From contig JAEOTA010000038.1 in the NCBI GenBank assembly GCA_016840085.1, positions 1-23,001 on the forward strand: a DNA stretch of 23,001 bases. Direction: 5' to 3'. This stretch comes from Promethearchaeota archaeon (lineage in GTDB: Archaea; Asgardarchaeota; Lokiarchaeia; Sigyniarchaeales; SOKP01). Numbering within the stretch: the first letter of the stretch is position 1; each line of letters starts with the position of its first letter. The notes under the pieces are model-generated. The model did no database searches. It worked only from the letters and a program-made list of their open reading frames with translations, and was not told where the DNA came from. Made by a program: the position numbers and the translations under genes. Below are positions 2,501 to 17,696 of the stretch, one piece after another.

Positions 2501-4975
2501 ATGATAATAAAGATAATTAAGATGAATGAAAGTTCAAAAATTAAGTTCGAAGACATTATAGTTAAGATATCAGATGATATTCAAGCACCAGATTTTAGTG
2601 ATCTTTTTACTGAAAAAAGATTATATACTTTTTTAGTAGGAGCAGGAATTTCGATGGATCCACCCTCCTCTGTTCCTTCTGCGAGGATGTTTGTGAATGA
2701 ATTATTAAAGTACTATGCGCCTGAAGAGGAAATACAAAATCTCTCTGAATTAAAATCTATGAGATATGAATTTTTGGTAGAAAAAATCCAAAATCTATTC
2801 GATAAGGAATTAACGTTCTTAGATTATCTAGATGAAGCAAAAGAGCCAAATGCTATTCATATTTTCTTGGCAAATATGATAATGCGGTATAATTATGTAG
2901 TTACGACAAATTTTGATTATCTCATTGAAATGGCGCTGAAGAAAAATCTCGATGGATATCCTGCGTTTCATAGTCATCATAAAAAAGTTATGGTTATCAT
3001 AACAAAAGAAGATTATCAAAAGAAGGTCTCTTTCCAATTCCCAATCATAAAAATTCATGGTTCTAAATATGATGCGATAAAGGGAAGATCAACAAAGGAT
3101 TCTTTAGTCACTACCATAAGTGCTCTTGGACGGGAAAGGGAAAAGGGTGAAACTTTTGCTATTGAACCATACAAAAAACCATTAATCAATGAAGTAATGA
3201 ATGGAAGAGATTTAGTTATAATGGGTTATTCTGGTAGTGATGATTTTGATATCAGTCCAATGTTAAAAGAATTACGCAATATGAAGAGAGTAATATGGAT
3301 AGATCACGACCAAAATATAGTCACAGGTAAAGAAGAAATTTACAAATATAAACCCATAAAAAATATCTCAAAAATATCATCTAGTTTAGACTTGTCTAAT
3401 TTAGATAAAATGCTGGTGGAGATTGCTTCGAGCAGAAATCTTGAAGTTTATAAGATTAGAGCAAAAACTATAGACTTTGTAAAGGATCAATTAGCCCCGA
3501 TATATAGAGAATCATTTGAATTCCTAAAAAAAGATACTCAGGACAAAATTTTAACTTTTAGCGAATATATGAAGGAAATCCATATTGAAGCTCCGATGTC
3601 TCAAAAATATAAGCTAGCTCATGAAATTTTTTATAATTTAGGTGATATAGAATCAGCGGAAAGGACAGCAGCGCAAGGACTGACGTTTTCGAAACAAGAA
3701 AATGATGAGCCAAATGTAAATTATTTTACGAATGCATTGGGATTAATTAATTTTTCGAAAGGAAATTATGATGAAGCACTTGAAAAATTTGAAGAGAGCC
3801 TTGATTTAACTGAAAAATTAAACCAAATTAACGAAAAAATGGGAATTTTGCTAAATTTGGGGGTACTCTATAGAGAGAAAGGTGACCTAAAAAACGCTTT
3901 CAAATATATCTCAGAAGCTTTAAATTTAATGACCGATGATACTCCGAATTTGATAAAATTTTCTGTCTTTAACTCTCTTGGAGTGGTATATAGAGATAAT
4001 GGGGATATTGTGAATGCAGTAAAAAGTATTGAATCTGCTCTTGAGGTTGCAGAAAAAACAGGAGATTTATTTAGAAAAGCATTATGTTACAATAATCTTG
4101 CGGGGATAAGGCTTTCTCAAGGGTTATTAGAGCCAGCATTAAAATTCTCTTCAGAAGCTCTTAAAATCGATGAGCAATTGGGAGATTTAGATGATATGTG
4201 CTCTACACTAAATACTATTGGAAACATTTATAAAATCGCAGGACATTACAATCAAGCTTTACTATACCTAGAGAGAGCATATCAAACGGCAATAAAAATC
4301 CAGAACCTAAATGATAAAGCTCTAGCAGCAAATTCAATTGGAGTGATTTATTATCAAATCGGAAAGCTTAATTTAGCTTCAGAGAAATATAATGAGGCAC
4401 TTACTATAAGAAAAGATATGGGGGATTTATCTGGTCAAGCAACATGTTTAAATAACATTGGGATGCTATATCGCATAAAAAGGGATTATAATACGGCTTT
4501 TGAATATTTTAACCAATCTATAGCACTCACTGAAAAGATTGGAGAGAAAACAAATTTAGGTGTACGCTATGGAAATAGAGCTTCAATCCACGAGGTTAGG
4601 CGTGAATTTGAAAACGCACTTGAAGAATATAAGAAAGCACTGAGTATTGAACAATCACTCGGGAATTTAATGGGCGCAGCAAATCAACTTACTAATATTG
4701 GAGGAATATTAGGGGATTTAGGAAGATATGAAGAAACAATAAAAAATTATGAAAAAGCGTTGAATATCATGGAGAATTTAGGGAATAAACCTGGTATTGC
4801 CCAAGCACTCAATAATCTGGGTGCGATTTATTATAAATACAAGAAAGATTACGAGAAATCCGTTAATTTTTTACAACGAGCAGTCGATATATACAATGAA
4901 TTAAATATGTCCCAAATGGCAATGTCAACAAAGCAAAATTTAGATTTTATCAAAAATCAATTTGAAGCAAAATAA
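2501..4975 (+). CDS. SIR2-like (SIR2_2) domain fused to a long TPR array
   Basis: SIR2 motifs FLVGAGIS, VVTTNFD, IIKIHGS and LVIMGYS. The C-terminal ~450 aa consist of roughly 11 TPR units with ~40-aa period (e.g. LNNIGMLYRIKRDYNTAFEYFNQSI). The start may be one of the downstream ATGs (2522). Confidence 0.9.
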   Translation: MIIKIIKMNESSKIKFEDIIVKISDDIQAPDFSDLFTEKRLYTFLVGAGISMDPPSSVPSARMFVNELLKYYAPEEEIQNLSELKSMRYEFLVEKIQNLFDKELTFLDYLDEAKEPNAIHIFLANMIMRYNYVVTTNFDYLIEMALKKNLDGYPAFHSHHKKVMVIITKEDYQKKVSFQFPIIKIHGSKYDAIKGRSTKDSLVTTISALGREREKGETFAIEPYKKPLINEVMNGRDLVIMGYSGSDDFDISPMLKELRNMKRVIWIDHDQNIVTGKEEIYKYKPIKNISKISSSLDLSNLDKMLVEIASSRNLEVYKIRAKTIDFVKDQLAPIYRESFEFLKKDTQDKILTFSEYMKEIHIEAPMSQKYKLAHEIFYNLGDIESAERTAAQGLTFSKQENDEPNVNYFTNALGLINFSKGNYDEALEKFEESLDLTEKLNQINEKMGILLNLGVLYREKGDLKNAFKYISEALNLMTDDTPNLIKFSVFNSLGVVYRDNGDIVNAVKSIESALEVAEKTGDLFRKALCYNNLAGIRLSQGLLEPALKFSSEALKIDEQLGDLDDMCSTLNTIGNIYKIAGHYNQALLYLERAYQTAIKIQNLNDKALAANSIGVIYYQIGKLNLASEKYNEALTIRKDMGDLSGQATCLNNIGMLYRIKRDYNTAFEYFNQSIALTEKIGEKTNLGVRYGNRASIHEVRREFENALEEYKKALSIEQSLGNLMGAANQLTNIGGILGDLGRYEETIKNYEKALNIMENLGNKPGIAQALNNLGAIYYKYKKDYEKSVNFLQRAVDIYNELNMSQMAMSTKQNLDFIKNQFEAK

Positions 4976-5006: not shown

Positions 5007-5600
5007 TTGAAGATGTATGTCAAAGTAAAGAACAAAAAGATCGAAGTTAAAAATGCACAGTTGTACTTAGGCAATATGCAAATTAGAAATATTGATCAAA
5101 TTACTGGATTAGATGCTTTAAGAGAATTGAACGTTTTCAATCTCTTCAATAACCAAATATCTATCATCAAAAATTTAGATTCCTTAATTAATTTGGAAAA
5201 ATTGAATCTTTATGGTAATGCTATAGAAGAAATCACTGGTTTTGACAATTTAAAAAATCTGAAAACTCTTTATCTATCTGACAATCATATAAAGAAAATT
5301 AAAGGGCTTAATCATTTGAAAAAATTAGAAGTTTTATCATTAGAAGATAATTCTATAAAGAAAATAGAAAATCTAAACCATCTAAGAAATTTACGGGAGT
5401 TAAACCTTTTTGGAAACTCAATTTCCGACTTAGAAGGGTTAGAAAGTCTCGATAAATTACAAATGCTAAGAATTGGACAGAATCCAATACCTGATGAGAT
5501 ATTCAAACAAACTGGCGGAATTGACAATTACGGATACGCAATAGATCCTCAAGAATGGGTAAACTATTGTAGAATTAACGAGTCTATAAATAATGGCTAA
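5007..5600 (+). CDS. Leucine-rich repeat protein (SDS22-like 22-aa repeats)
   Basis: About 6 repeats of LxxLxLxxNxIxxIxxLxxL (e.g. LKTLYLSDNHIKKIKGLNHL). The start may be ATG 5013. Confidence 0.92.
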   Translation: MKMYVKVKNKKIEVKNAQLYLGNMQIRNIDQITGLDALRELNVFNLFNNQISIIKNLDSLINLEKLNLYGNAIEEITGFDNLKNLKTLYLSDNHIKKIKGLNHLKKLEVLSLEDNSIKKIENLNHLRNLRELNLFGNSISDLEGLESLDKLQMLRIGQNPIPDEIFKQTGGIDNYGYAIDPQEWVNYCRINESINNG

Positions 5601-5709: not shown

Positions 5710-6882
5710 GTGTTTAATGAAAAAACTTGCCAACGGTGTGGTACGTGCCTTGAGCAATGCCCATTTTTGCAATTACCTATAGAAGATGCTAAAAATGAAA
5801 TTTCTATAATGATTGAGACAAGAAATACACGATCGATACTCAGAAATTGTGCAGGGTGTGGTTACTGCAGTATTGTTTGTCCAACAGTGTCAAATCCACA
5901 TGAACTCATAAAAGAAATACGATTAAGATATACTCGTGAGAAAGGTGTGAGAAGTTTATCACTCATAACTGAGGAGATTCCTTATAATTTAATGTCAATA
6001 AGCTTAGAAAATAATAGGGAGGAAAAGCTACTAGAATTAAATAAATACGAAAATCCCCCAAAAAGCAAGGCAATGTATTATGTGGGCTGTGCAATTCCCT
6101 ATTATTTTCAAGATCTGGCCAAAACTAAATTATTGGAGGATTTACCCTTATTAGGGGGAATGAAGTATTGTTGCGGGGGGTATGTTCATTCAAGGTTTGG
6201 TGAAAATGAAGCGAGAATAAAAGGCTTAGAATTATATGAAAAATTTAAGAAATTAGGGGTAGAAAAACTCATCACCTTCTGTCCTGAATGTGATAACATG
6301 ATTAAAGGTGTGTATCCTTCGATTATCGAAGAATTTGATGTGGAAGGCCAAAATTTCATTGATTACTTTATTGAAAAGTACCATAAGGGTGAGTTAAAAA
6401 TCAAAAACAAAATCAATCAAAGAATTACATTTCAAGATCCCTGTCCTTGGAGAAATTTAGACAAGAAAATCTACAATGGTCCTAGGGAATTTCTTGAAAT
6501 TATTGGTGCAGAAGTTGTAGAAATGAAACACAATAGGGAAAACTCTCTATGTTGTGGAGCTCCTCTTGCAATGTCAAATAGAAATTTAGCAACAAAAATC
6601 GCTAAAGAGAGAATATCTGAAGCAGAAAGTGTAAATACTGATGTCATTGCTTTTATGTGTACGGGTTGCCTTACAACCTTATCTAGATATGCCACTGAAC
6701 GGAATATTAAATCGTATTATGCCACTGAATTAGCCCAAATGGCAATAGGGGAATCACCGGAATTTAAAATCCTTGAAAATGCAAAAATGCTTCAAAAACA
6801 AGTCATTAAAACAATTAGCGAGAATCCAAATATACTAACGGAAAGATTCATAATAAAAAATGGAAAAGTAAGTCGTTTATAA
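5710..6882 (+). CDS. (Fe-S)-binding oxidoreductase, HdrD/GlpC-like (4Fe-4S dicluster plus two CCG domains)
   Basis: CQRCGTCLEQCP and CAGCGYCSIVCP ferredoxin motifs. CCG domains: YVGC..YCCGG..FCPEC and FQDPC..LCCGA..MCTGC. Confidence 0.9.
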   Translation: MFNEKTCQRCGTCLEQCPFLQLPIEDAKNEISIMIETRNTRSILRNCAGCGYCSIVCPTVSNPHELIKEIRLRYTREKGVRSLSLITEEIPYNLMSISLENNREEKLLELNKYENPPKSKAMYYVGCAIPYYFQDLAKTKLLEDLPLLGGMKYCCGGYVHSRFGENEARIKGLELYEKFKKLGVEKLITFCPECDNMIKGVYPSIIEEFDVEGQNFIDYFIEKYHKGELKIKNKINQRITFQDPCPWRNLDKKIYNGPREFLEIIGAEVVEMKHNRENSLCCGAPLAMSNRNLATKIAKERISEAESVNTDVIAFMCTGCLTTLSRYATERNIKSYYATELAQMAIGESPEFKILENAKMLQKQVIKTISENPNILTERFIIKNGKVSRL

Positions 6883-6900
6883 TTTATAATCCAATATCTC

Positions 6901-6910
6901 CTTTTTTTTT
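6901..6910 (+). terminator. Oligo-T archaeal terminator candidate
   Basis: T9 run about 20 nt after the stop of 5710..6882. Confidence 0.4.
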
Positions 6911-7211
6911 ATATAAATTCGGTTATTTTATGTAATTAATCCTATTAATTTGTTTTTAAATATTTAAAATAAAAATCTACTTCAGTTTAAAATAATTTGA
7001 TGAATATATTTGTTTTTAGAGTAAAGAAAGACTCTAAGCCTCATTTTAAATTTAATAATTGTTATAAATCTTAAAAAAAAGTATAGTTTTGAATGAAAAA
7101 AAGTATTCGTATGAGTAGTATAATTCGTTCTTGATTAAAGGTTTCAAGCTCTATATGGGTTATATTATTTAAATAAAAATTTATATGTGATACTATTTTT
7201 TTTAACAAACC

Positions 7212-8228
7212 ATGCTTTTAATATCAATTCCTTTTCTAATAGTAGGGTTTATTGGCTTATATTTTGGCGCTAAATTTGTGATAATAGGACTTGAAAGTAT
7301 TGCAGATCGCTTACATATTAGTCATATAATGGTGGGGTTGACAATATTATCGATAGGGACTAGTTTACCAGAGATTGCGATAAGTATAATGGGTGGTCTT
7401 GATAAGATTTTGGGCATTGATCCTAACATTGATGGAATAGTAATTGGAAATAAGATTGGATCGTTTTTGACTCAAATTACGTTAATCATAGGAATTTTAG
7501 CGGTAAGCCAACCAATTTTCATTAGCAAGTGGGAATTGAGGAGAGAAGGTCCTATGCTCGTTATTTCTGTATTGATTTTTCTTTTTTTCTCCTTAGATGG
7601 TGTTCTTACTCAATTTGAGGCACTCTTGATGATAATAATATATTTTATTTATCTCTCATTAGTAATTTGGAGTGAAAGACGTTTATTAAAGATGAAATCA
7701 GACCTTAAAGTTCTAGAAAAAGAACGTTTAGATTCCGTAAGTTTTGAACCAGTTAAGAGTCCTCATAAAACCTCATCAACCTCTAAAGATATTGGTATTT
7801 TTTTACTGGGTCTTTTAATACTATTATTCGCAGCAGAACTCACATTATTATCAGCACATGATTTATCAAAAGAATTTCATATTCCTGAAAATGTAATTGG
7901 AATCTTAATAGTTGGATTTGGTACAAGTTTACCAGAATTAGTTGCTGATTTAACCGCAATAAGGAGAGAATCCTATGGAATCGCTGTAGGAGATATATTA
8001 GGTTCTAATATATGTGATATCTTATTAGCTACAGGGTCAGGAGCAATCATAATTAATTTTAATGTTCCGAGAATAATTCTGGTTTTTGATATACCGGTTC
8101 TATTTCTGGCGTTAATTATCGCGCTTTATTTCTTATGGAGTCAAAAAACCTTAAAAAGATGGGAAGGAATACTATTAATTAGTTTTTATGGCGTGTATGC
8201 GATGTTTAAAATATTCTTGTTTCACTAA
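7212..8228 (+). CDS. Calcium/sodium antiporter (CaCA family, YrbG-like)
   Basis: Two alpha-repeats, GTSLPE...IGNKIGS and GTSLPE...VGDILGSN, with about 10 TM segments. Confidence 0.93.
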   Translation: MLLISIPFLIVGFIGLYFGAKFVIIGLESIADRLHISHIMVGLTILSIGTSLPEIAISIMGGLDKILGIDPNIDGIVIGNKIGSFLTQITLIIGILAVSQPIFISKWELRREGPMLVISVLIFLFFSLDGVLTQFEALLMIIIYFIYLSLVIWSERRLLKMKSDLKVLEKERLDSVSFEPVKSPHKTSSTSKDIGIFLLGLLILLFAAELTLLSAHDLSKEFHIPENVIGILIVGFGTSLPELVADLTAIRRESYGIAVGDILGSNICDILLATGSGAIIINFNVPRIILVFDIPVLFLALIIALYFLWSQKTLKRWEGILLISFYGVYAMFKIFLFH

Positions 8229-8326
8229 CTTTTTTTAGCTATTAAAATCTAGTTTTTATCATCGAGTTCCTTCTAAATATAAAAAAAAAATAGATTTAAA
8301 GATATTTTTAAAATTTTTTAGTGGGT

Positions 8327-8653
8327 TTATTCTGGCATTTGAAGCCCGATCATTGGCATTGCCTCTACTCCCGCCATGAAGACTTCAATTTCATATTTGA
8401 GACCTTTGACGAGATTTCCAAACATGAGCATCCGTCTATATACTAAATCCAAAGTTTCTTGAAGTTTCCCTCCTTTAACCTCGTCTATGGCAAGACCCTT
8501 AAAACCTTTCTTAGTTGCTTTAACGCAAGCAGACAAAATCGGTTTATATAAAGATCTATCTGCTGGATACTTTTTCATTACTTCAAGATACGCCTTGCCA
8601 ACTTCTTCGGATACACTATGAGGCCACTGAGTGTGAATTACAACTATAGGCAT
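8327..8653 (-). CDS. Hypothetical small soluble protein (possibly ferredoxin-like fold)
   Basis: 108-aa ORF with normal composition and a strong SD (GGAGGT) 7 nt upstream of the ATG. Confidence 0.75.
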   Translation of the reverse strand: MPIVVIHTQWPHSVSEEVGKAYLEVMKKYPADRSLYKPILSACVKATKKGFKGLAIDEVKGGKLQETLDLVYRRMLMFGNLVKGLKYEIEVFMAGVEAMPMIGLQMPE

Positions 8654-9050
8654 ATTTTTTACCTCCTCTCTTTATTTTTAATATAGATAATTCAATTTAG
8701 AAGAGAATTCCCCTTCCTTTTTAATTCAATTTTATTAAAAATGAAAATTTTTTGGAATTATACGTGAGTTTCAATAAGACTAATTTTAATTTAAATCTTT
8801 TCTCTCTTTATTCAAATAGCGAATTTATCGCTAATCTAACATATCAAATATTATATGAAATGCATTGTTTATTGAAAAATCTGTGGAATTACTCTAATTA
8901 TAAGACACAAACTTTCCATTATATTTGAAATAAGAAAATTATTTTAATTAACCAATGCTCCTGAGTAGCAATTTGTATTGATTAGAATAAAAAGTAGGTA
9001 ATTTTGTTTTTATTTTAGATGCTTGAATTCATTGATAATTCAGACAATTT

Positions 9051-11519
9051 CTAACATTGATAATTATCCTCCTTAACTTTCCAATATAATTTTTCACCTA
9101 TTTCAGTAAGCCTAAAGGATCTTTTTTCAGGTTTTGTAAAATCATTTTCCATTAAGTATTTAGTTAATTTCTCAAAGCTAATTTTACTATATGAAGCATC
9201 TTGCATTATAACATTCTTAATAATTGTTGGTTTGTAAAACTTGAATTTTTCAGTACCTCTTTCTCGTTGTTTAAGATACATGCATAACCCGCAAACCTCA
9301 TATTTGTATGGTTCTAAATCGGGGAAATCACTGATCCATTGAATCATAGGTGTTTTTGGACGCTCTAAACTTGGTTGCGTGGAACTTTTCGGTTCAGATA
9401 AATCTTCTTCTATTATTTTTTCTACATAATCTGTGATCCGAGAAGGTTCAGATATAGGAGTTACTAGTGCGATCATTGGTTCTCTTTGTCCTATTCCCCG
9501 ATAAGTAAGATTTTTTATTTCCAATAAAAAACTTTCAATACTCTGACCTAAAATGCCATTTAGTAGTTTCTTAGCTAATATAATATCATTTTGAGGTTCA
9601 TCCCCCAATTTTTTACCTGAAACTTCTTCATAGAGAGCTAGTAGGTACAATATATTTTCTTGGGTTTGTGTTAAAGTTGGTCTTCTTATCCGAGTCGGAT
9701 AATTTCGTTCCAACTGCTTTATTTTTTGCTCTGCATTTGAATCAAGACCTCTGCCAGTTATTATGAAATATATAAAATCAGTGTATCCTTCTTTAAATAA
9801 TTGTAAAGAGGATTTTATCTTATCTAAATGAATGTATGCATTTTGCCCGTAAGTCTTAACTTGAAATTCTACATATCTACGATATTCTGCACCTAAATTT
9901 CCTAATATTTGAACATATACATCTGGTCTTCTTCTTTTCCCAGTTGAGGTTTTAATTATAGGATTGTTCTTAACATCTGTAATTGTGGGGGGATTTTCAA
10001 ACGTTAAGCATTTCCAAGCACTTTCAAGTCCCACTTCAACCGCTGAAGAACGAGCGGCGTTTGATCTAAATTTCAAAGGATCATCAAAATCTTCTCTGAT
10101 ATACTGCCAATCAAACCTTCTTAAATTATCAGGATCAAAACTACTTTTATCAAACTTTAGAACTTCTTGCATACATTCGAATTTAGATTCGAATTTTGGT
10201 ACATTTTTATTATATCTAAAAGTAATCCACATATCTCTGAGAAAGTGTATAGCTTCTCGAAGATCCCTCATTTTATAACGATATATGTATTCAAAAAGAT
10301 TTAACGAAAAAGGATAATTGGGTTCCAATATAAATCGTTCTGAAGAATAATTACTCCAGAATCTATTCATCCGATTAATAAAGACTTGTTTAACATCTTC
10401 AATGCTAAGTTGTTTTAAAGGTAAGGTATACATGAATTCAATTATCTGACTTTCAAGATCAGAATTTTTTTTGATTTCTTCATCAAATTTTGCCCAATCT
10501 GTAGTTGTTGAGATGAATACAAATAAAACATAATTTAATGATTCTCTTAATCTAATAAACAATAATCCTAAATTGTATAAATAATCCCTTGACAATTCAC
10601 GATCTATTTTTGCCGCTTCATCAATACCAATTAATAATAAAGGCTGTTTACCTGTTAGACACGCGTAATATCGCATTAACTTATCAAAATAATTTATTAA
10701 TTCATCATTACTCCTGAATAAGTTATTGCTAGCAGTTAAAATTAATTCTAAATAATCTTCAGGATCATCTTCATCTATAACTCTAAATAAATCTCTTATG
10801 AATCTATTATCTACCCTTTTTAATTCATAAATGTTCCCATATACCTCCGTTCTAAATTTCTCACGAAGTTCCAATTTTTTATCAGCATAATATTTCTGAA
10901 TAGCTTTAACAACAGTGCTCCCTTTATTAATCAATGGTCTTACTAAATCTTGAAGCTCAACATGATCAAGACGATTTGGTCTATTCTCAGGATCCCATAT
11001 GATTCCAGATAATACTTCTGGATCATTTAAGAACATTTTGTAAACAAACAAAATAGCAATATATTCTGGTAAACTTACGTCTAAACCAACTTCAACATCA
11101 AAGCCAGGTCTTAAACCGTCCATCATGGGAATCCATATATCTCTGAATTCAAGAATTTTATCAGGTTTTACAAAATAAGTTGAAAGAATATCAGTATTCC
11201 TTAAAATATATTGAGTTCTAGGGCTCTCGTCAACTCTTTCAGATTCAATAGATTCTTTTAGATAATTAAAAAGTGTCGACTTACCAACACCTCCTGGACC
11301 CTCTAATCGTACGGCACGGCTTAATCTATGATGAAATACAAGATTTAATTGTGATTTTAATTTTGCGAGTTCTTCCCTTCTACCAACAAAATCAGAAACA
11401 CGTTGATTTGGATTATATTGCGCTAATCCAAAAGGATTTAAATCAGTTTCGAATATAATTTTATTTAATCTGACACATTCTCTTCTTGTTGGCCATCTTA
11501 AATTTCTCTGAATATTCAT
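9051..11519 (-). CDS. AAA+ ATPase fused to an Mrr-like PD-(D/E)XK endonuclease domain and a C-terminal winged helix
   Basis: NPF..FVGRREEL pre-Walker segment, Walker A GPGGVGKS, Walker B LLIGIDE, sensor-like VFIST, helical lid YPF...DLREAI. Nuclease-like RPDVYV...VEFQVKTY...FIITGRG. wHTH-like tail FEKLTKYL...FRLTEIG. Confidence 0.8.
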   Translation of the reverse strand: MNIQRNLRWPTRRECVRLNKIIFETDLNPFGLAQYNPNQRVSDFVGRREELAKLKSQLNLVFHHRLSRAVRLEGPGGVGKSTLFNYLKESIESERVDESPRTQYILRNTDILSTYFVKPDKILEFRDIWIPMMDGLRPGFDVEVGLDVSLPEYIAILFVYKMFLNDPEVLSGIIWDPENRPNRLDHVELQDLVRPLINKGSTVVKAIQKYYADKKLELREKFRTEVYGNIYELKRVDNRFIRDLFRVIDEDDPEDYLELILTASNNLFRSNDELINYFDKLMRYYACLTGKQPLLLIGIDEAAKIDRELSRDYLYNLGLLFIRLRESLNYVLFVFISTTTDWAKFDEEIKKNSDLESQIIEFMYTLPLKQLSIEDVKQVFINRMNRFWSNYSSERFILEPNYPFSLNLFEYIYRYKMRDLREAIHFLRDMWITFRYNKNVPKFESKFECMQEVLKFDKSSFDPDNLRRFDWQYIREDFDDPLKFRSNAARSSAVEVGLESAWKCLTFENPPTITDVKNNPIIKTSTGKRRRPDVYVQILGNLGAEYRRYVEFQVKTYGQNAYIHLDKIKSSLQLFKEGYTDFIYFIITGRGLDSNAEQKIKQLERNYPTRIRRPTLTQTQENILYLLALYEEVSGKKLGDEPQNDIILAKKLLNGILGQSIESFLLEIKNLTYRGIGQREPMIALVTPISEPSRITDYVEKIIEEDLSEPKSSTQPSLERPKTPMIQWISDFPDLEPYKYEVCGLCMYLKQRERGTEKFKFYKPTIIKNVIMQDASYSKISFEKLTKYLMENDFTKPEKRSFRLTEIGEKLYWKVKEDNYQC

Positions 11520-11545
11520 ATTTTCTTACATTAAAATATGGTTTT

Positions 11546-12097
11546 TTACCTACGAATGATTCTCCCAATATTATCATGTATCTTTAGCTTAGAACCACCT
11601 TCTGATACATCAAAAAGTTCTTCATCAACTAGATCATCAATAGCTCTACCTAAATTTTCTAATGAAAGAGTTTTGAATTCTTTTATTCGATATATTTCAT
11701 CAATAGTTATTGATTTCCCTGGTTTAATCAAGGATATTATTTTATTCTTTAAGTTTTCATATTCTATGCCACTTATTCCTCTTTTTCCTGATTTCAATTG
11801 TGATATATTTAGTTCTACACTACTTATCTTATCCATGATAAATTTTACTTGCTTTTCAAGTAAATTAACTCTCTTTATTAATGCAGATTCTTTTATAGGG
11901 GGTTTTTTTTTAGCAGTTTTTTTTGGTTTGGAGTATTTATTGAACAATTCTTGTAATCTTTTGTCTACTATTCCTGAATTCATAATTTCTTTTATTTTAT
12001 CTGCTTTTAATCTACCTTTAAGTTTTAAATTGAATTCGTTAGCTAATTGGATCAATTGGCTAACTGTCAAATTATTAAGATCTACTATTGAAAACAC
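11546..12097 (-). CDS. Putative DNA-binding protein: N-terminal HeH/Rho_N(SAP)-like motif, coiled coil, C-terminal winged helix
   Basis: LNNLTVSQLIQLANEFNLKLKGRLKADKIKEI resembles the HeH/Rho_N pattern. Heptads at LIKRVNLLEKQVKFIMDKISSVELNISQL. wHTH-like ITIDEIY...LGRAIDDLVDEELF. GTG start, 26 nt gap to the ATPase. Confidence 0.65.
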   Translation of the reverse strand: MFSIVDLNNLTVSQLIQLANEFNLKLKGRLKADKIKEIMNSGIVDKRLQELFNKYSKPKKTAKKKPPIKESALIKRVNLLEKQVKFIMDKISSVELNISQLKSGKRGISGIEYENLKNKIISLIKPGKSITIDEIYRIKEFKTLSLENLGRAIDDLVDEELFDVSEGGSKLKIHDNIGRIIRR

Positions 12098-12252
12098 CTT
12101 TTAAATTAATGAAAATAGTATGTTAATTATCTTTTGATCTATTCAGATAATAAATATTTAACAGATATATAAAAAACTTTTACTTCTCCATAAAAGATTA
12201 ATAATAGAAAGAGAAATGATTAATTATATAATAAAAAAGAACAGTATTAAGC

Positions 12253-14025
12253 ATGGCAAATTTCCTTAGTAAACCTCCTGTATCGGCTACGAGTGGAGAG
12301 AGAGCGTTTTACAATCGAATTAAACATGTTTATCTCGGGGAAGATCACTTATTAGGATATTTTGAGCCGGATATTGGGGGGCTTCATCCTGATTTTGTTT
12401 TACTTTCTCCCAAATATGGAATAATAATTATAGAAATTAAGGATTATTCTGAGAAATATCTAAAAACAATATCCAAATCGGGGAAATGGGAGAGATTAAA
12501 GGATGATAAGGTAATCTTAATTGATAATCCATTTGATCAGGTATATCAGTATTGGAGAGTGATAAAAGACAGGATTGATTATTGTCATTTTCCTGAAAAT
12601 GTAGAAATTCCAATAGTTCGATTAGTAGCTTTTAATCAAATTTCACAGGAGGGATATATAGCTGAAGAACTTAGGAAAATTGTCCCAACAAAAATCCATC
12701 TATGTTTCAAGGAAACATTAAGTGATAATGAAAAATTTAAAGAATTTTTCTATGATATTATATCATCAAAATCCGAGTTAACCGCTGAATTTTTTAATGT
12801 TCTTCGATCAAATCTTATACCAACTTGTCGATTACCTACATTAAAACAAAAGGATCTACTAAAATATTTAACCCCTAAAGAGAAGATTAAACTATTAGAT
12901 CAAGAACAAGAAAAACTAGCAAGGGAATTAGGAGAGGGACATCGGCTAATCTTTGGAGTGGCTGGTAGTGGAAAAACAATCCTATTAATTGCCCGAGCTA
13001 GAATCCTTGCCAAACGTCATCCAAATTGGAAAATTTTAATTTTATGTTATAACAAATTGCTTAAAACACTACTTTTCAATTTGTTAAATCCTCAGGATTA
13101 TGAAGCTGATATTACAATTAGTACTTTTCATGGATGGGCACGTAATTACATTCTTAACCCTGATAATGAATTCTCTAAATTATACAAAGAAGCAGAGGAA
13201 AGAGCGGAGAAAGAAGATAAAATAACTGAATTCTTTCAAGATTTTGTACCAAATTTATTATTAAAAACGATTGATGCTTTAGGGAATGAGAAAATTACTT
13301 ATGATGCGATTTTAATAGATGAGGCACAAGATTTTGAAGAAAACTGGTTCTTACCTCTTGTTCAAACGTTAAATCCTGAAACAAATTCATTATTAATTAC
13401 TTGTGATGGACTTCAAGGAATTTATGCTAGAAAAAGATTTTATTGGTCGGATGTTGGGATACAAGCAAAAGGAAGAGTAAAAAGATTTTCAAAATCATAT
13501 AGAACACCGATTGAAATTGGCTATTTAGCCCAAGAAACTTTACCGATGAATATTAAAGAACTTATAGGTCAGTTTGATGAATTTATTTCAACAAAAGAAT
13601 TTCTTGGTGATCATGGAACTGTAGAAATTATCATATCAGAAACTCGAAAGGATGAATATAAAACAATAGTTGAAAAAATAGCCCGACTTCTAAAGAATCC
13701 TCAAAATATTTTAGTGTTATTCAGATACAATTTGGAGAAAATGAACTATGATCATCCTTTTTGTAAATGTCTTGAAGAGCATAATATTGAATGGAGAGAT
13801 TTACAAGACTATAATTATATGTCACCTGGATTATTGATTGGGACGCTTCACGGAACTAAAGGTTTAGAGTCCGATATTATAATTATTCCTGAGATAGATA
13901 AATACAAGAATAATGATGATCGCCAACTACTTTATGTTGGGATAACTCGCTCTCGTAAAAAACTAATTTTGAGTGCTAATAAATCAACAGAATTAATAAA
14001 ATCTTTAGAACCCTACCAAACTTAA
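12253..14025 (+). CDS. NERD-domain nuclease fused to a superfamily 1 (UvrD-like) helicase
   Basis: NERD: GERAF...PDFVLL...IIEIKD...NPFDQ. SF1 motifs: LDQEQ, GVAGSGKT, LCYNK, STFH, ILIDEAQD, DGLQ, SYRT, TLHGTKGLE, LYVGITRS. Confidence 0.9.
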   Translation: MANFLSKPPVSATSGERAFYNRIKHVYLGEDHLLGYFEPDIGGLHPDFVLLSPKYGIIIIEIKDYSEKYLKTISKSGKWERLKDDKVILIDNPFDQVYQYWRVIKDRIDYCHFPENVEIPIVRLVAFNQISQEGYIAEELRKIVPTKIHLCFKETLSDNEKFKEFFYDIISSKSELTAEFFNVLRSNLIPTCRLPTLKQKDLLKYLTPKEKIKLLDQEQEKLARELGEGHRLIFGVAGSGKTILLIARARILAKRHPNWKILILCYNKLLKTLLFNLLNPQDYEADITISTFHGWARNYILNPDNEFSKLYKEAEERAEKEDKITEFFQDFVPNLLLKTIDALGNEKITYDAILIDEAQDFEENWFLPLVQTLNPETNSLLITCDGLQGIYARKRFYWSDVGIQAKGRVKRFSKSYRTPIEIGYLAQETLPMNIKELIGQFDEFISTKEFLGDHGTVEIIISETRKDEYKTIVEKIARLLKNPQNILVLFRYNLEKMNYDHPFCKCLEEHNIEWRDLQDYNYMSPGLLIGTLHGTKGLESDIIIIPEIDKYKNNDDRQLLYVGITRSRKKLILSANKSTELIKSLEPYQT

Positions 14026-14321
14026 GAAGTAATTTGACAAATAGGGCAAAGATGAGAACTTATTAATATAAATCGATTTGAAGGCATAATTATATTTGAT
14101 TCGAAAAGTTCTCGGACTATTTCTTTATTCTCAGAATAATCTTTTAAAATAAATTCATTTGGCGAGAGTTCTACTGAATTATGCATTATAGAAAGCTCGG
14201 CTATTGGTGCGCCACCATGATCATAAATATATACTGCAAGTTGACCATTTGAATATTGTTTTGTATAAAGTTCTTTCTTGAATTTTGCTTTATTTTTTAT
14301 CATCTTTTTCATGAAACACAA
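14022..14321 (-). CDS. Hypothetical protein, DUF4313-like
   Basis: The pattern YSNGQLAV...GAPIAELSI...L..NEFILKDYSEN..V..L....II......CPIC resembles DUF4313-type proteins as recalled. Its stop overlaps the helicase stop (TTAA, 14022-14025). Confidence 0.5.
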   Translation of the reverse strand: MCFMKKMIKNKAKFKKELYTKQYSNGQLAVYIYDHGGAPIAELSIMHNSVELSPNEFILKDYSENKEIVRELFESNIIMPSNRFILISSHLCPICQITS

Positions 14322-14418
14322 TCATATCATTATTTATAAATAGAAAAAGAGTATTCAAAAAATGATTTTTCATTATACCTTGAATTCGATCAGAGTATAA
14401 TAATTATAATAATAACTA

Positions 14419-15102
14419 CTAACTCCTTAAATCAAAGGTATATTTACATTCAGGAAATCCAGAGCATCCAACAAATTTTCCATATTTTCCCTCTTTTACA
14501 AATAAAGCTTGTCCACATTCAGGGCAAAAAATATTTTCACGATCTTCAAATTCCGGATTAAATGCAAACCTACATTCTGGATAACTGCTACAGCCTAAGA
14601 AAAATCCATATTTACTTCTCCGCTTTACCAAATCCCTGCCGCATTTAGGACATTGAGGATATACCTGTTTTTTCCCAACTTCTTCTGCGGCATCCCCCCA
14701 ATCAAGTCTAAAATCACATTCAGGATGTCCTGTACAAGCTAAGTATTTTTCACTTTCAGTTTCATTTATTTTCATTTCTAAGACTTTCCCACATTTAGGA
14801 CAGAAAATATCGGGATGCTCTTTAAATTCAGGGTTATAAGCGAATTTACATTCCGGATACCCACTGCAACTTAAAAACCTTCCATATTGACTGCTGCGAA
14901 ATCGTAAATTTTTCCCGCAATCCGGACATTGTATACCAGTAGTTTCAACACTCAAATCATAAGTATATCTACACTCTGGAAAGTTAGTACACCCTAAGAA
15001 TTTACCATATTTACCTTCACGTTCTACTAAGTCGCTACCACATTTAGGGCACTTTTTCGGTACCTCAGATTCGTTTTCATTAGACTCCATAAGTAAATCC
15101 AA
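14419..15102 (-). CDS. Standalone topoisomerase DNA-binding C4 zinc-finger repeat protein (YrdD-like, 5 fingers)
   Basis: Five CPxCG..L....G.F..C..(F/Y/H)PEC repeats and no topoisomerase core. The likely start is ATG 15090. Confidence 0.9.
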   Translation of the reverse strand: MDLLMESNENESEVPKKCPKCGSDLVEREGKYGKFLGCTNFPECRYTYDLSVETTGIQCPDCGKNLRFRSSQYGRFLSCSGYPECKFAYNPEFKEHPDIFCPKCGKVLEMKINETESEKYLACTGHPECDFRLDWGDAAEEVGKKQVYPQCPKCGRDLVKRRSKYGFFLGCSSYPECRFAFNPEFEDRENIFCPECGQALFVKEGKYGKFVGCSGFPECKYTFDLRS

Positions 15103-15233
15103 TTTATCATAATTAAAAAATCTTAAATAAAATCAAGATAGTAAGAAGATTATCGAAAATCGGGAAGAAATTCGCGGGTATCTTTTTCAGAGTAAAAACT
15201 TCATTTATACTTTCCTTGAATTATAATTGAATA

Positions 15234-15695
15234 TTATTTTTTTTCCGTTTTCATTTTTAAACCACGCTTCATCATCAGTTCTAATACATATAATTGTTTT
15301 TCATTGAGTTTTTTTAATTCTGATATAAGATTGTTATCATGATATAATTTAATAAAAATATTTAGATGTTCAATAGCTAATCTATGATTATTTTTTTTTT
15401 TAAGATAATCGACTTCTGCTAGGATTCTACTTATAAGTTCCTTCAAAATAACAATTCTAATTTCCTGAGACAAACCTTCAATTATATTAGAAACCCTCTC
15501 AGCCCTGCCCGCAGTAATCCATGAGCTTATTGCTAAACGGAAAGCTTCATGAATAATTTCTTCATCTAATAACTCTAAGCTTGACCAGCGAGCTGCATTT
15601 TCATACATTCTAGCCACTTCTTCGTATTTACCTCTATTAAATAATCGGTTCCCCTCAATAATCATAGCTTCTGCATAAAGTTTTTCAATATTCAT
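15234..15695 (-). CDS. Hypothetical alpha-helical (TPR-like) protein
   Basis: GNRLFNRGKYEEVARMYENA resembles a TPR helix pair. 153-aa ORF. Confidence 0.55.
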   Translation of the reverse strand: MNIEKLYAEAMIIEGNRLFNRGKYEEVARMYENAARWSSLELLDEEIIHEAFRLAISSWITAGRAERVSNIIEGLSQEIRIVILKELISRILAEVDYLKKKNNHRLAIEHLNIFIKLYHDNNLISELKKLNEKQLYVLELMMKRGLKMKTEKK

Positions 15696-15970
15696 TTTAA
15701 CTTTCCTTTAATTATTTTCTAATTTTTTTTTTTAAACTTTTCTTGAACTATATTTTGGATCTTACCCTTAGGCTTATATAATTCCAATTTATCATAACTA
15801 AAAAATATAGGATAAAATTAAAGCAAGTTCAATCGTATCAAAATAAAAATTAATTCAATGTATTGAATTTTCAATTTCAAAATAACGATTTATAGTTAGT
15901 TTTCCCTTAGCTTGCTTTTTTTACTTTAACTCCTGCCGACACCCTTGATTTGAATCGATTATTATTAACA

Positions 15971-17036: not shown

Positions 17037-17696
17037 TTATGAAATGTTATAATAGACTATCCAAAAATAAGGTAAAGACTCCATTTCAAAATTTTTAACA
17101 CTAGTTCCAAGAGACTCCATAATTTCTTGTTTAGTGGGAAAATTTTTTAGTATCTCATATTCTTGTCCATCATCTAATTTTCTTATTTGATATGTATTTC
17201 CGTCGCTATCAGTTCGACTTATTGGTGTTGAGCTTCCCTCGCGATATCGGTTATCCATAAATATGATGAGAGCTTCTGGTTGAAATTTTGAATGAAAAAC
17301 ATCAAGAAAGCCTTTTAATTTTGATTTTAATATATGAGACCACCAAGAACCTGCATAGCCCGCGGAAAAAACACCCTGAGTCATATTTAACAAATATACA
17401 TCATCTTGGATAAAGATTACATTTTTTGAATGAATTAACTTATTTTTAGCTATTCGAAGGACTTCATTGTTAATATCCACTGCTGTGATAAATTTAGCAA
17501 CAGAAGCAATAGTTTTAGTCCAAAAGCCAGTCCCACATGCAATCTCAAGGACTCTATGTCCTTTTAGTAGATTTTTAAGTAATAAATGTATTTTTTTAAT
17601 ATCATCTTGACGCTCAGGTCTTAAATAAGTTTTATCATATTCTTTCGCTCGGTTAGCATAGTATTTTTGTATCTTTTTTTCAATTTTTTTGGGCAT
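17037..17696 (-). CDS. Class I SAM-dependent methyltransferase
   Basis: N-terminal YYANRAKEYD, motif I VLEIACGTG, ITAVDIN, FIQDDVY and WWSHI. Confidence 0.9.
   Translation of the reverse strand: MPKKIEKKIQKYYANRAKEYDKTYLRPERQDDIKKIHLLLKNLLKGHRVLEIACGTGFWTKTIASVAKFITAVDINNEVLRIAKNKLIHSKNVIFIQDDVYLLNMTQGVFSAGYAGSWWSHILKSKLKGFLDVFHSKFQPEALIIFMDNRYREGSSTPISRTDSDGNTYQIRKLDDGQEYEILKNFPTKQEIMESLGTSVKNFEMESLPYFWIVYYNIS

Follow-up and report, generated by a model that had tools for sequence, protein, structure and literature searches.

The stretch of Promethearchaeota archaeon DNA analysed here, 23,001 nucleotides long and called the window below, carries five consecutive genes (P1 to P5) that an earlier note had proposed as one co-regulated defence or DNA-surveillance module. 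Our results divide them into module A, the pair P2-P1 (9051-12097, minus strand), and module B, the pair P3-P4 with P5. The reading we favour, and hold to be fairly probable, is that these are two independent mobile Asgard accessory modules, set back to back within a variable region, and that both most likely serve nucleic-acid-targeting defence. An ATPase-nuclease pair that is undescribed stands here beside a helicase-nuclease of a known type, and both are probably antiviral.

The source genome (G000) is a 4.7-Mb Asgard genome of ~30% G+C in which the window lies on contig C26; its same-order relatives include Promethearchaeum syntrophicum MK-D1 and Ca. Harpocratesius repetitus. The five open reading frames (ORFs) and the 155-bp divergent intergenic region lie exactly where the earlier note had placed them, and most of its domain calls hold. 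We surveyed 400 Asgard genomes, and give counts as well for 53 genomes of the same genus and for 90 that are at least 90% complete.

The five genes fall into two conserved pairs

In 36 of the 37 loci having upstream sequence, P1 is immediately preceded by a P2-type gene; the sole exception is a truncated P1 remnant, and the pairing holds for three P1 subfamilies with 21-27% identity to one another. P4 lies right after the stop of P3, on the other strand, in all 17 loci whose P3 is at least 55% identical; in the window the two genes overlap at their stops by 4 nt, tail to tail. The P1 family is present in 48 of the 400 genomes and P3 in 39. Both occur in 16, and in five of these (G000, G021, G233, G245 and G204) they are adjacent. 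The arrangement is divergent in G000, G021 and G204. In G233, by contrast, P1 is followed downstream by P3, and in G245 P3-P4 is upstream of P2. Four different module layouts were seen overall, with adjacent P1 genes drawn from three subfamilies. In the complete genome G032 modules A and B are 230 kb apart. Because the modules mostly occur apart, are adjacent in five genomes only and vary in layout, an obligate five-gene system is unsupported; the five genes are not consistently linked across Asgard genomes, and the single co-regulated module first proposed gives way to two pairs. The two NTPase-nuclease fusions do point away from each other, as had been described, but it is P2 and not P1 that borders the shared intergenic region.

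In the P3 tree every adjacency falls within one well-supported clade of six, in which G021 and G233, although sister taxa, differ both in P1 subfamily and in layout. The pattern would fit a single juxtaposition in an ancestor, after which a variable island saw rearrangement and the exchange of cassettes; the two modules may still cooperate facultatively. We regard it as unlikely that the five genes constitute one co-functional system, in which the ATPase-nuclease pair and the helicase-nuclease cooperate and P4 and P5 are accessory. Such a system would agree with the five genomes in which P3 adjoins a P1-family gene, with the presence of all five gene families together in G245, with a different UvrD-nuclease fusion upstream of the P2-P1 pair in G040, and with the co-occurrence of P1 and P3 in 16 genomes against ~4.7 expected if they were independent, an excess that is inflated by shared ancestry. 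However, at least 15 genomes carry P3-P4 but yielded no P1-family gene, another 32 show the reverse, a P1-family gene but no P3, order and orientation vary by layout, the modules are widely separated in G032, and the confinement of adjacency to a single P3 clade may trace to a single ancestral juxtaposition.

P1 joins an AAA+ ATPase to a restriction-fold nuclease

The AlphaFold2 (AF2) model of P1 has a predicted local distance difference test score (pLDDT) of 87, and its C-terminal half folded alone reached 85; the linker at aa 678-724 is disordered (pLDDT <50). In an alignment of 22 homologues the invariant residues are G74, G77, G79, K80 and S81 (Walker A), D300 (Walker B), R325, E495, P532, D533 and K555. 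Pfam gave a weak AAA_16 match (E 2.7e-7) and a weak terminal winged helix only, and P1 was unmatched by the PADLOC models. Structural comparison of the ATPase domain with VIA-align returned ORC1/Cdc6, TnsC, BrxC and RdrA at Z 12-14 (Foldseek E ~1e-4), and the terminal winged helix is placed as in Orc1/Cdc6. The large helical insert, the internal nuclease and the patchy distribution set P1 apart from all of these, and with 26.6 bits against a cut-off of 181.3 it falls outside the Orc1/Cdc6 family model TIGR02928. No BREX, RADAR or Tn7 partner genes were found near P1.

Congruent with the Mrr nuclease that had been announced for P1, the domain behind the ATPase has a PD-(D/E)xK fold with a D...(Q/E)xK catalytic motif, with Q at position 553 (E in the paralogue). 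Foldseek matched it to AF1548 (1y88, E 8e-5), MspJI (4f0p, 6e-4) and AspBHI (4oc8, 1.8e-3), the structural matches also include VC1899 and Can2, and VIA gave Z 8.5-8.6 to 1y88 and 1xmx; a profile of the domain found nothing meaningful among PDB sequences. The C-terminal winged helix resembles many winged helix-turn-helix proteins at a VIA Z of ~8, among them STIV F93, MarR/PadR family proteins and the C-terminal domain of ORC2. Small free-standing homologues of this winged helix also exist: one lies in G032 (L028, 18845-19207; 39% identity over aa 709-821), and the P1 profile-search matches of 76-130 aa are of the same kind.

P1 does not have the NACHT/NB-ARC core and C-terminal repeat sensor of STAND/Avs proteins. 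Neither its AF2 model nor Pfam shows a repeat domain, no Avs/STAND model is among the PADLOC matches, and weak nSTAND and NACHT hints (E>0.01) came from a P1 paralogue only.

P2 is a putative adaptor with an exchangeable head

An alignment of 16 P2 homologues outlined a SAP/HeH-like head, a Lys-rich linker, a coiled coil and a conserved C-terminal domain. The head of P2 matches SAP below threshold (E 8e-4) and its coil matches coiled-coil PDB entries. Across homologues the head is exchanged for a C2H2-like CxxC...H...H element (MK-D1 and others) or for a helix-hairpin-helix (HHH_5 E 4.5e-12 in the P2 paralogue of contig C80), with the linker, coil and C-terminal domain retained. Read in this way, P2 is predicted to be a DNA-binding coiled-coil adaptor with an interchangeable DNA-binding head. 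A comparison of the P2 family with the C-terminal half of P1 by hhalign found no relation.

The source genome has a second, divergent pair, P2b-P1b, on contig C80 (L021, 4116-6997, minus strand); P1b is 748 aa long and ~23% identical to P1, and the head of P2b is the helix-hairpin-helix. Genes for an HRDC-phosphoribosyltransferase and a DprA/SLOG-like protein were seen within 1-2.5 kb of this pair. A homologous pair is likewise present in the cultured strain Promethearchaeum syntrophicum MK-D1 (L032, NZ_CP042905.2, ~93.2-96.3 kb), with a zinc-finger P2 head and a P1 that is 31% identical.

In the mechanism that we propose for module A, P2 and the P1 winged helix would bind DNA, the AAA+ domain would assemble on it in an ATP-dependent manner, as ORC, TnsC, BrxC and McrB do, and the Mrr-like domain would cut it, which would make the pair a restriction-like system without a methyltransferase. 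We offer only tentatively the more specific proposal that P2-P1 is an undescribed, Asgard-restricted form of ATP-dependent restriction-like immunity in which an ORC/TnsC-type AAA+ assembly would bring the Mrr-like nuclease to DNA picked by the exchangeable adaptor head (SAP, zinc finger or helix-hairpin-helix), and which in one lineage became functionally coupled to NERD-UvrD/P4.

P3 is a NERD-UvrD helicase-nuclease with small partners

The earlier domain calls for P3 and P5 were borne out by Pfam. P3 combines NERD with UvrD, and its PDB matches are PcrA and HelD. In 19 homologues D47, E61 and K63 of the NERD domain (aa ~14-127) are invariant, and the helicase carries its Walker A at G235-T242 and its DExx motif at 356-360. 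Relatives number more than 2,000; the closest 120 are all ~590-aa proteins, Asgard wherever an organism is named, and a scan of IMG/VR found two distant (28%) ones. Because P3 matches the PADLOC model C3a187 'NERD+UvrD' (PDLC01087) over its full length (E 6.1e-75; residues 10-586 on 13-554 of the 559 model positions), it belongs to a described family. The statement that the locus matches no named system consequently stands for P1, P2, P4 and P5, which have no PADLOC match, and falls for P3. C3a187 is a type III CRISPR-associated candidate, listed with the number 3 in a table, which we read as three type III cassettes (PMC6546367). No Cas family of Pfam was found among the 22 ORFs of the 23-kb window, and the type III adjacency of C3a187 was thus not seen there. 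The Asgard P3 clade further differs from C3a187 in its lineage-specific convergent P4 and, often, its zinc-ribbon P5.

The superfamily 1 (SF1) UvrD core of P3 is also shared with GajB of Gabija and with the UvrD helicases associated with DRT (GajB models E 1e-14, RTasNERD-Hel 4e-16). These scores are, however, far weaker than that of C3a187, neither GajA (ATPase-TOPRIM) nor a reverse transcriptase is adjacent, and PADLOC matched GajA nowhere among the neighbours of P3.

An alignment of 16 homologues of P4 showed the conserved motifs YxNGQ, AELS, EFxxKDxSEN and a C-terminal CPxC. The P4 search returned 318 clusters, and a Pfam family appeared in none of the best 120 of these 318; the P4 profile found nothing among PDB sequences. 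The likeness to DUF4313 that had been noted for this protein stands at the level of language-model features only (0.93, 26/30 matches), since at E<=10 the PF14190 hidden Markov model (HMM) was matched neither in hmmscan nor when the whole genome was searched in six frames. P4 may have a regulatory role.

P5 scored 217.5 bits for PF01396 (Zn_ribbon_Top1) against a cut-off of 32, in five stretches of which four exceed the cut-off singly; PF01396 matches nothing else in the genome. Its DNA repeats of 123-144 nt make up the families D1 and D2. P5 stands beside P4-P3 in three genomes of the genus (the source genome, G013 and G010). Related helicases carry fused zinc ribbons, as in L055, where a P3 orthologue bears a double zinc ribbon, and in L015, with its UvrD + Zn_ribbon_Top1 fusion, and for this reason we read P5 as one half of a split architecture; by analogy, it probably supplies in trans the DNA-binding ribbons that those helicases have in cis. 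Module B would then operate as P3 with its obligate convergent partner P4, often joined by P5. Adjoining P3 in G245 (L024/L040, 5994-7043, minus strand) we also observed a gene for a 349-aa protein with three Topo-I-type zinc ribbons and a TFIIB cyclin repeat.

Distribution and genomic context of module A

The P1 family is rare and almost entirely Asgard. Within the genus of the source genome it occurs in 7 of the 53 genomes, and among the genomes at least 90% complete it and P3 occur in 11 of 90 each. A P1 profile searched against 1.84 billion representative proteins gave 260 matches at E<=1e-3 and 72 at E<=1e-30. The closer homologues with organism names are all Asgard; of ten distant clusters examined four bear such names, two being Helarchaeota or Heimdallarchaeota, one a marine sediment metagenome and the fourth the bacterium Caldisericum exile; three of the four count as Asgard and one as bacterial. 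A metagenome scan found one locus only, and the viral contigs of IMG/VR matched P1 at the level of the Walker A alone. Degraded copies were seen in G204, with four in-frame stops, and as a remnant in G265.

The position of the pair is variable as well. In G209, the closest relative, P2-P1 and the gene for the Na/Ca exchanger, neighbours in the window, are on different contigs; around the exchanger orthologue in six relatives the exchanger gene alone is conserved. The genes flanking the P2-P1 pair show no conservation between loci. A PRTase III-A gene lies near it in L031 and L032, as does a HerA gene in L026, and a gene for a TnsA-rve fusion adjoins it in L027.

Several single loci have neighbours worth recording in their own right. 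In L031 (Promethearchaeum sp. CSMAG_2396, 6042-9287) genes for a 721-aa pAgo-like protein (PADLOC E 1.8e-29) and a Cas4-like protein are directly upstream of P2-P1 on the same strand, and in MK-D1 the pair adjoins LRR proteins and a PRTase-CE gene. Immediately upstream of the P2c-P1c pair of L015 (G040, 2-1897) is a UvrD-Zn_ribbon_Top1-GIY-YIG fusion that is GajB-like, a different helicase-nuclease in the place taken by P3-P4 in G245. In L023 (G242, 982-1695) a P5-like gene and P2 are separated by a gene for a PLD-like nuclease that has a double zinc ribbon, and an RNase H-like gene recurs beside the modules in L022 and L025.

We read both modules as probable defence because of their patchiness, variable location and degraded copies, their two intact nuclease-NTPase combinations and their defence-type neighbours, such as the pAgo, PRTase, HerA, GajB-like and SIR2-TPR genes. 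Several observations weigh against this interpretation. The support from neighbouring genes is anecdotal, and the borders of an island are undefinable, with synteny around the locus too poor in relatives. P3 adjoins three P1 subfamilies, and G021 and G204 share one divergent layout; this is more than random placement would yield, and the adjacency could reflect real cooperation. The P1 ATPase is about as close to ORC as to TnsC, BrxC and Clp (Z 12-14), and these matches therefore do not tell how it assembles. The nuclease domain does not reach the gathering thresholds of Mrr_cat and Mrr_cat_2 (PF04471/PF13156): it scored 12.6 bits in the window, the best scores in P1 homologues were 21.6 bits (cut-off 22) and 18.7 bits (cut-off 21), Mrr_cat_2 recurred as a sub-threshold match in 5 of 8 homologous nuclease segments, and Mrr_cat had E 0.002 in one. 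Given structural matches together with sub-threshold Pfam scores, 'Mrr-like' is right for the fold and motif of P1 and not for its HMM family. Finally, PADLOC-DB is that of 2023, and a more recently named system is possible.

A mobile-element function seems improbable for module A, which would then be, for instance, a fused TnsC-like ATPase and TnsA-like nuclease-winged-helix serving target selection or excision, or the replication initiator of an integrated element. The P1 ATPase does have TnsC among its best structural matches (7ufi Z 13.6, 9g0f, 7rzy), and the TnsA/TnsC entry 1t0f is a weak Foldseek match to the C-terminal half of P1 (E 0.045). In TnsA, too, the nuclease comes before the winged helix, as it does in P1. 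The fusion gene of L027 and the variation of location among close relatives point in the same direction. On the other hand, the pair has no transposase or integrase next to it, either in the window or in the other loci checked, the locus shows neither a tRNA gene nor long terminal repeats, no TnsB (rve) or element ends are in the window, and IMG/VR viral contigs hold no relatives beyond the Walker A match. Among the loci checked TnsA-rve was seen only in L027, where the Tn7-like genes point away from the pair and the next genes on that strand are other unannotated ones. Nor did we find convincing inverted repeats flanking an invertible P3-P4 cassette.

We consider it very improbable that the five genes have a housekeeping role in chromosomal DNA repair or in chromatin: the resemblances to ORC/Cdc6, UvrD/PcrA and the Topo I zinc ribbon would suit it, yet both families are patchy even among the most complete genomes, the scores for TIGR02928 and the UvrD/PcrA equivalog models are far below cut-offs, and degraded copies exist.

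Comparison of module A with known systems

Returning to the defence interpretation, module A can be set beside two groups of restriction systems. With the type IV enzymes Mrr, MspJI and AspBHI and with AF1548 (1y88) it shares the nuclease fold, the catalytic motif and the lack of a paired methyltransferase. P1 differs from Mrr and MspJI in having no Mrr_N or SRA-type modification reader; its nuclease sits behind a 470-aa AAA+ ATPase and is followed by a tethered winged helix, and a separate partner gene is present. As in McrBC and other systems of NTPase and PD-(D/E)xK nuclease, an AAA+ motor is coupled to a restriction-fold nuclease and the DNA-reading module is separate. Unlike McrBC, module A has ATPase and nuclease in one polypeptide with the DNA-binding adaptor apart, its AAA+ domain resembles the ORC/TnsC clade and not McrB, and the PADLOC models are unmatched. 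A literature search found nothing relevant on a named ATPase-Mrr system or on DUF4313.

Immunity has been too little sampled in archaea, and in Asgard archaea above all, and the catalogues now in use derive from bacterial systems. If it is defence, P2-P1 would add a lineage-specific architecture in which an initiator-type AAA+ domain and a restriction-fold nuclease are joined to a modular SAP, zinc-finger or helix-hairpin-helix adaptor. The pair would also be a testable case of an ORC-like motor used for something other than replication in the prokaryotes most closely related to eukaryotes. Moreover, the division into two modules keeps a five-gene 'system' from being wrongly catalogued.

Layout of the locus and its surroundings

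Coordinates of the genes, domains and intergenic region are collected in Table 1.

Table 1. Features of modules A and B in the window.
Feature	Position	Strand	Description
P1	9051-11519	-	ORF, 822 aa; AAA+ ATPase, PD-(D/E)xK nuclease, disordered linker, winged helix; putative module A effector
P1 ATPase domain	10110-11465	-	aa 19-470; Walker A and Walker B separated by a ~165-aa helical insert
P1 nuclease domain	9510-10061	-	aa ~487-670; Mrr/MspJI-like; E495 ... P-D533 ... E551-x-Q553-x-K555
P1 C-terminal winged helix	9069-9341	-	aa 727-817; HTH_45 E 0.0026
P2	11546-12097	-	ORF, 183 aa, GTG start, 26 nt upstream of P1; module A partner
P2/P3 intergenic region	12098-12252		155 bp, AT-rich, divergent; from sequence
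P3	12253-14025	+	ORF, 590 aa; NERD nuclease and UvrD-type SF1 helicase
P4	14022-14312	-	96 aa; ORF 14022-14321, probable ATG at 14312; convergent with P3
P5	14419-15102	-	ORF, 227 aa; five Topo-I-type C4 zinc ribbons; same direction as P4

An AT-rich, TATA-like element 5' of P3, read by eye, recurs in G021 and G204. As had been claimed, no methyltransferase is adjacent; a class-I SAM methyltransferase lies further off, at 17037-17696, and matches generic methyltransferase families and the rRNA dimethylase family only. The surroundings, described before as metabolic, are not solely so. At 2501-4975 lies a gene for an 824-aa fusion of SIR2_2 and TPR (PADLOC TPR 1e-31, with a weak Aga_SIR2 match), followed at 5007-5600 by one for a 197-aa LRR protein; this further defence-like pair is ~4 kb from the locus, its genes being 4-6 kb away. 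On the other side, an unannotated 153-aa ORF occupies 15234-15695. A 43-nt direct repeat (84% identity) at 15094-15136 and 15779-15821 lies upstream of P5 and of this ORF, and it may be a promoter element that the two share.

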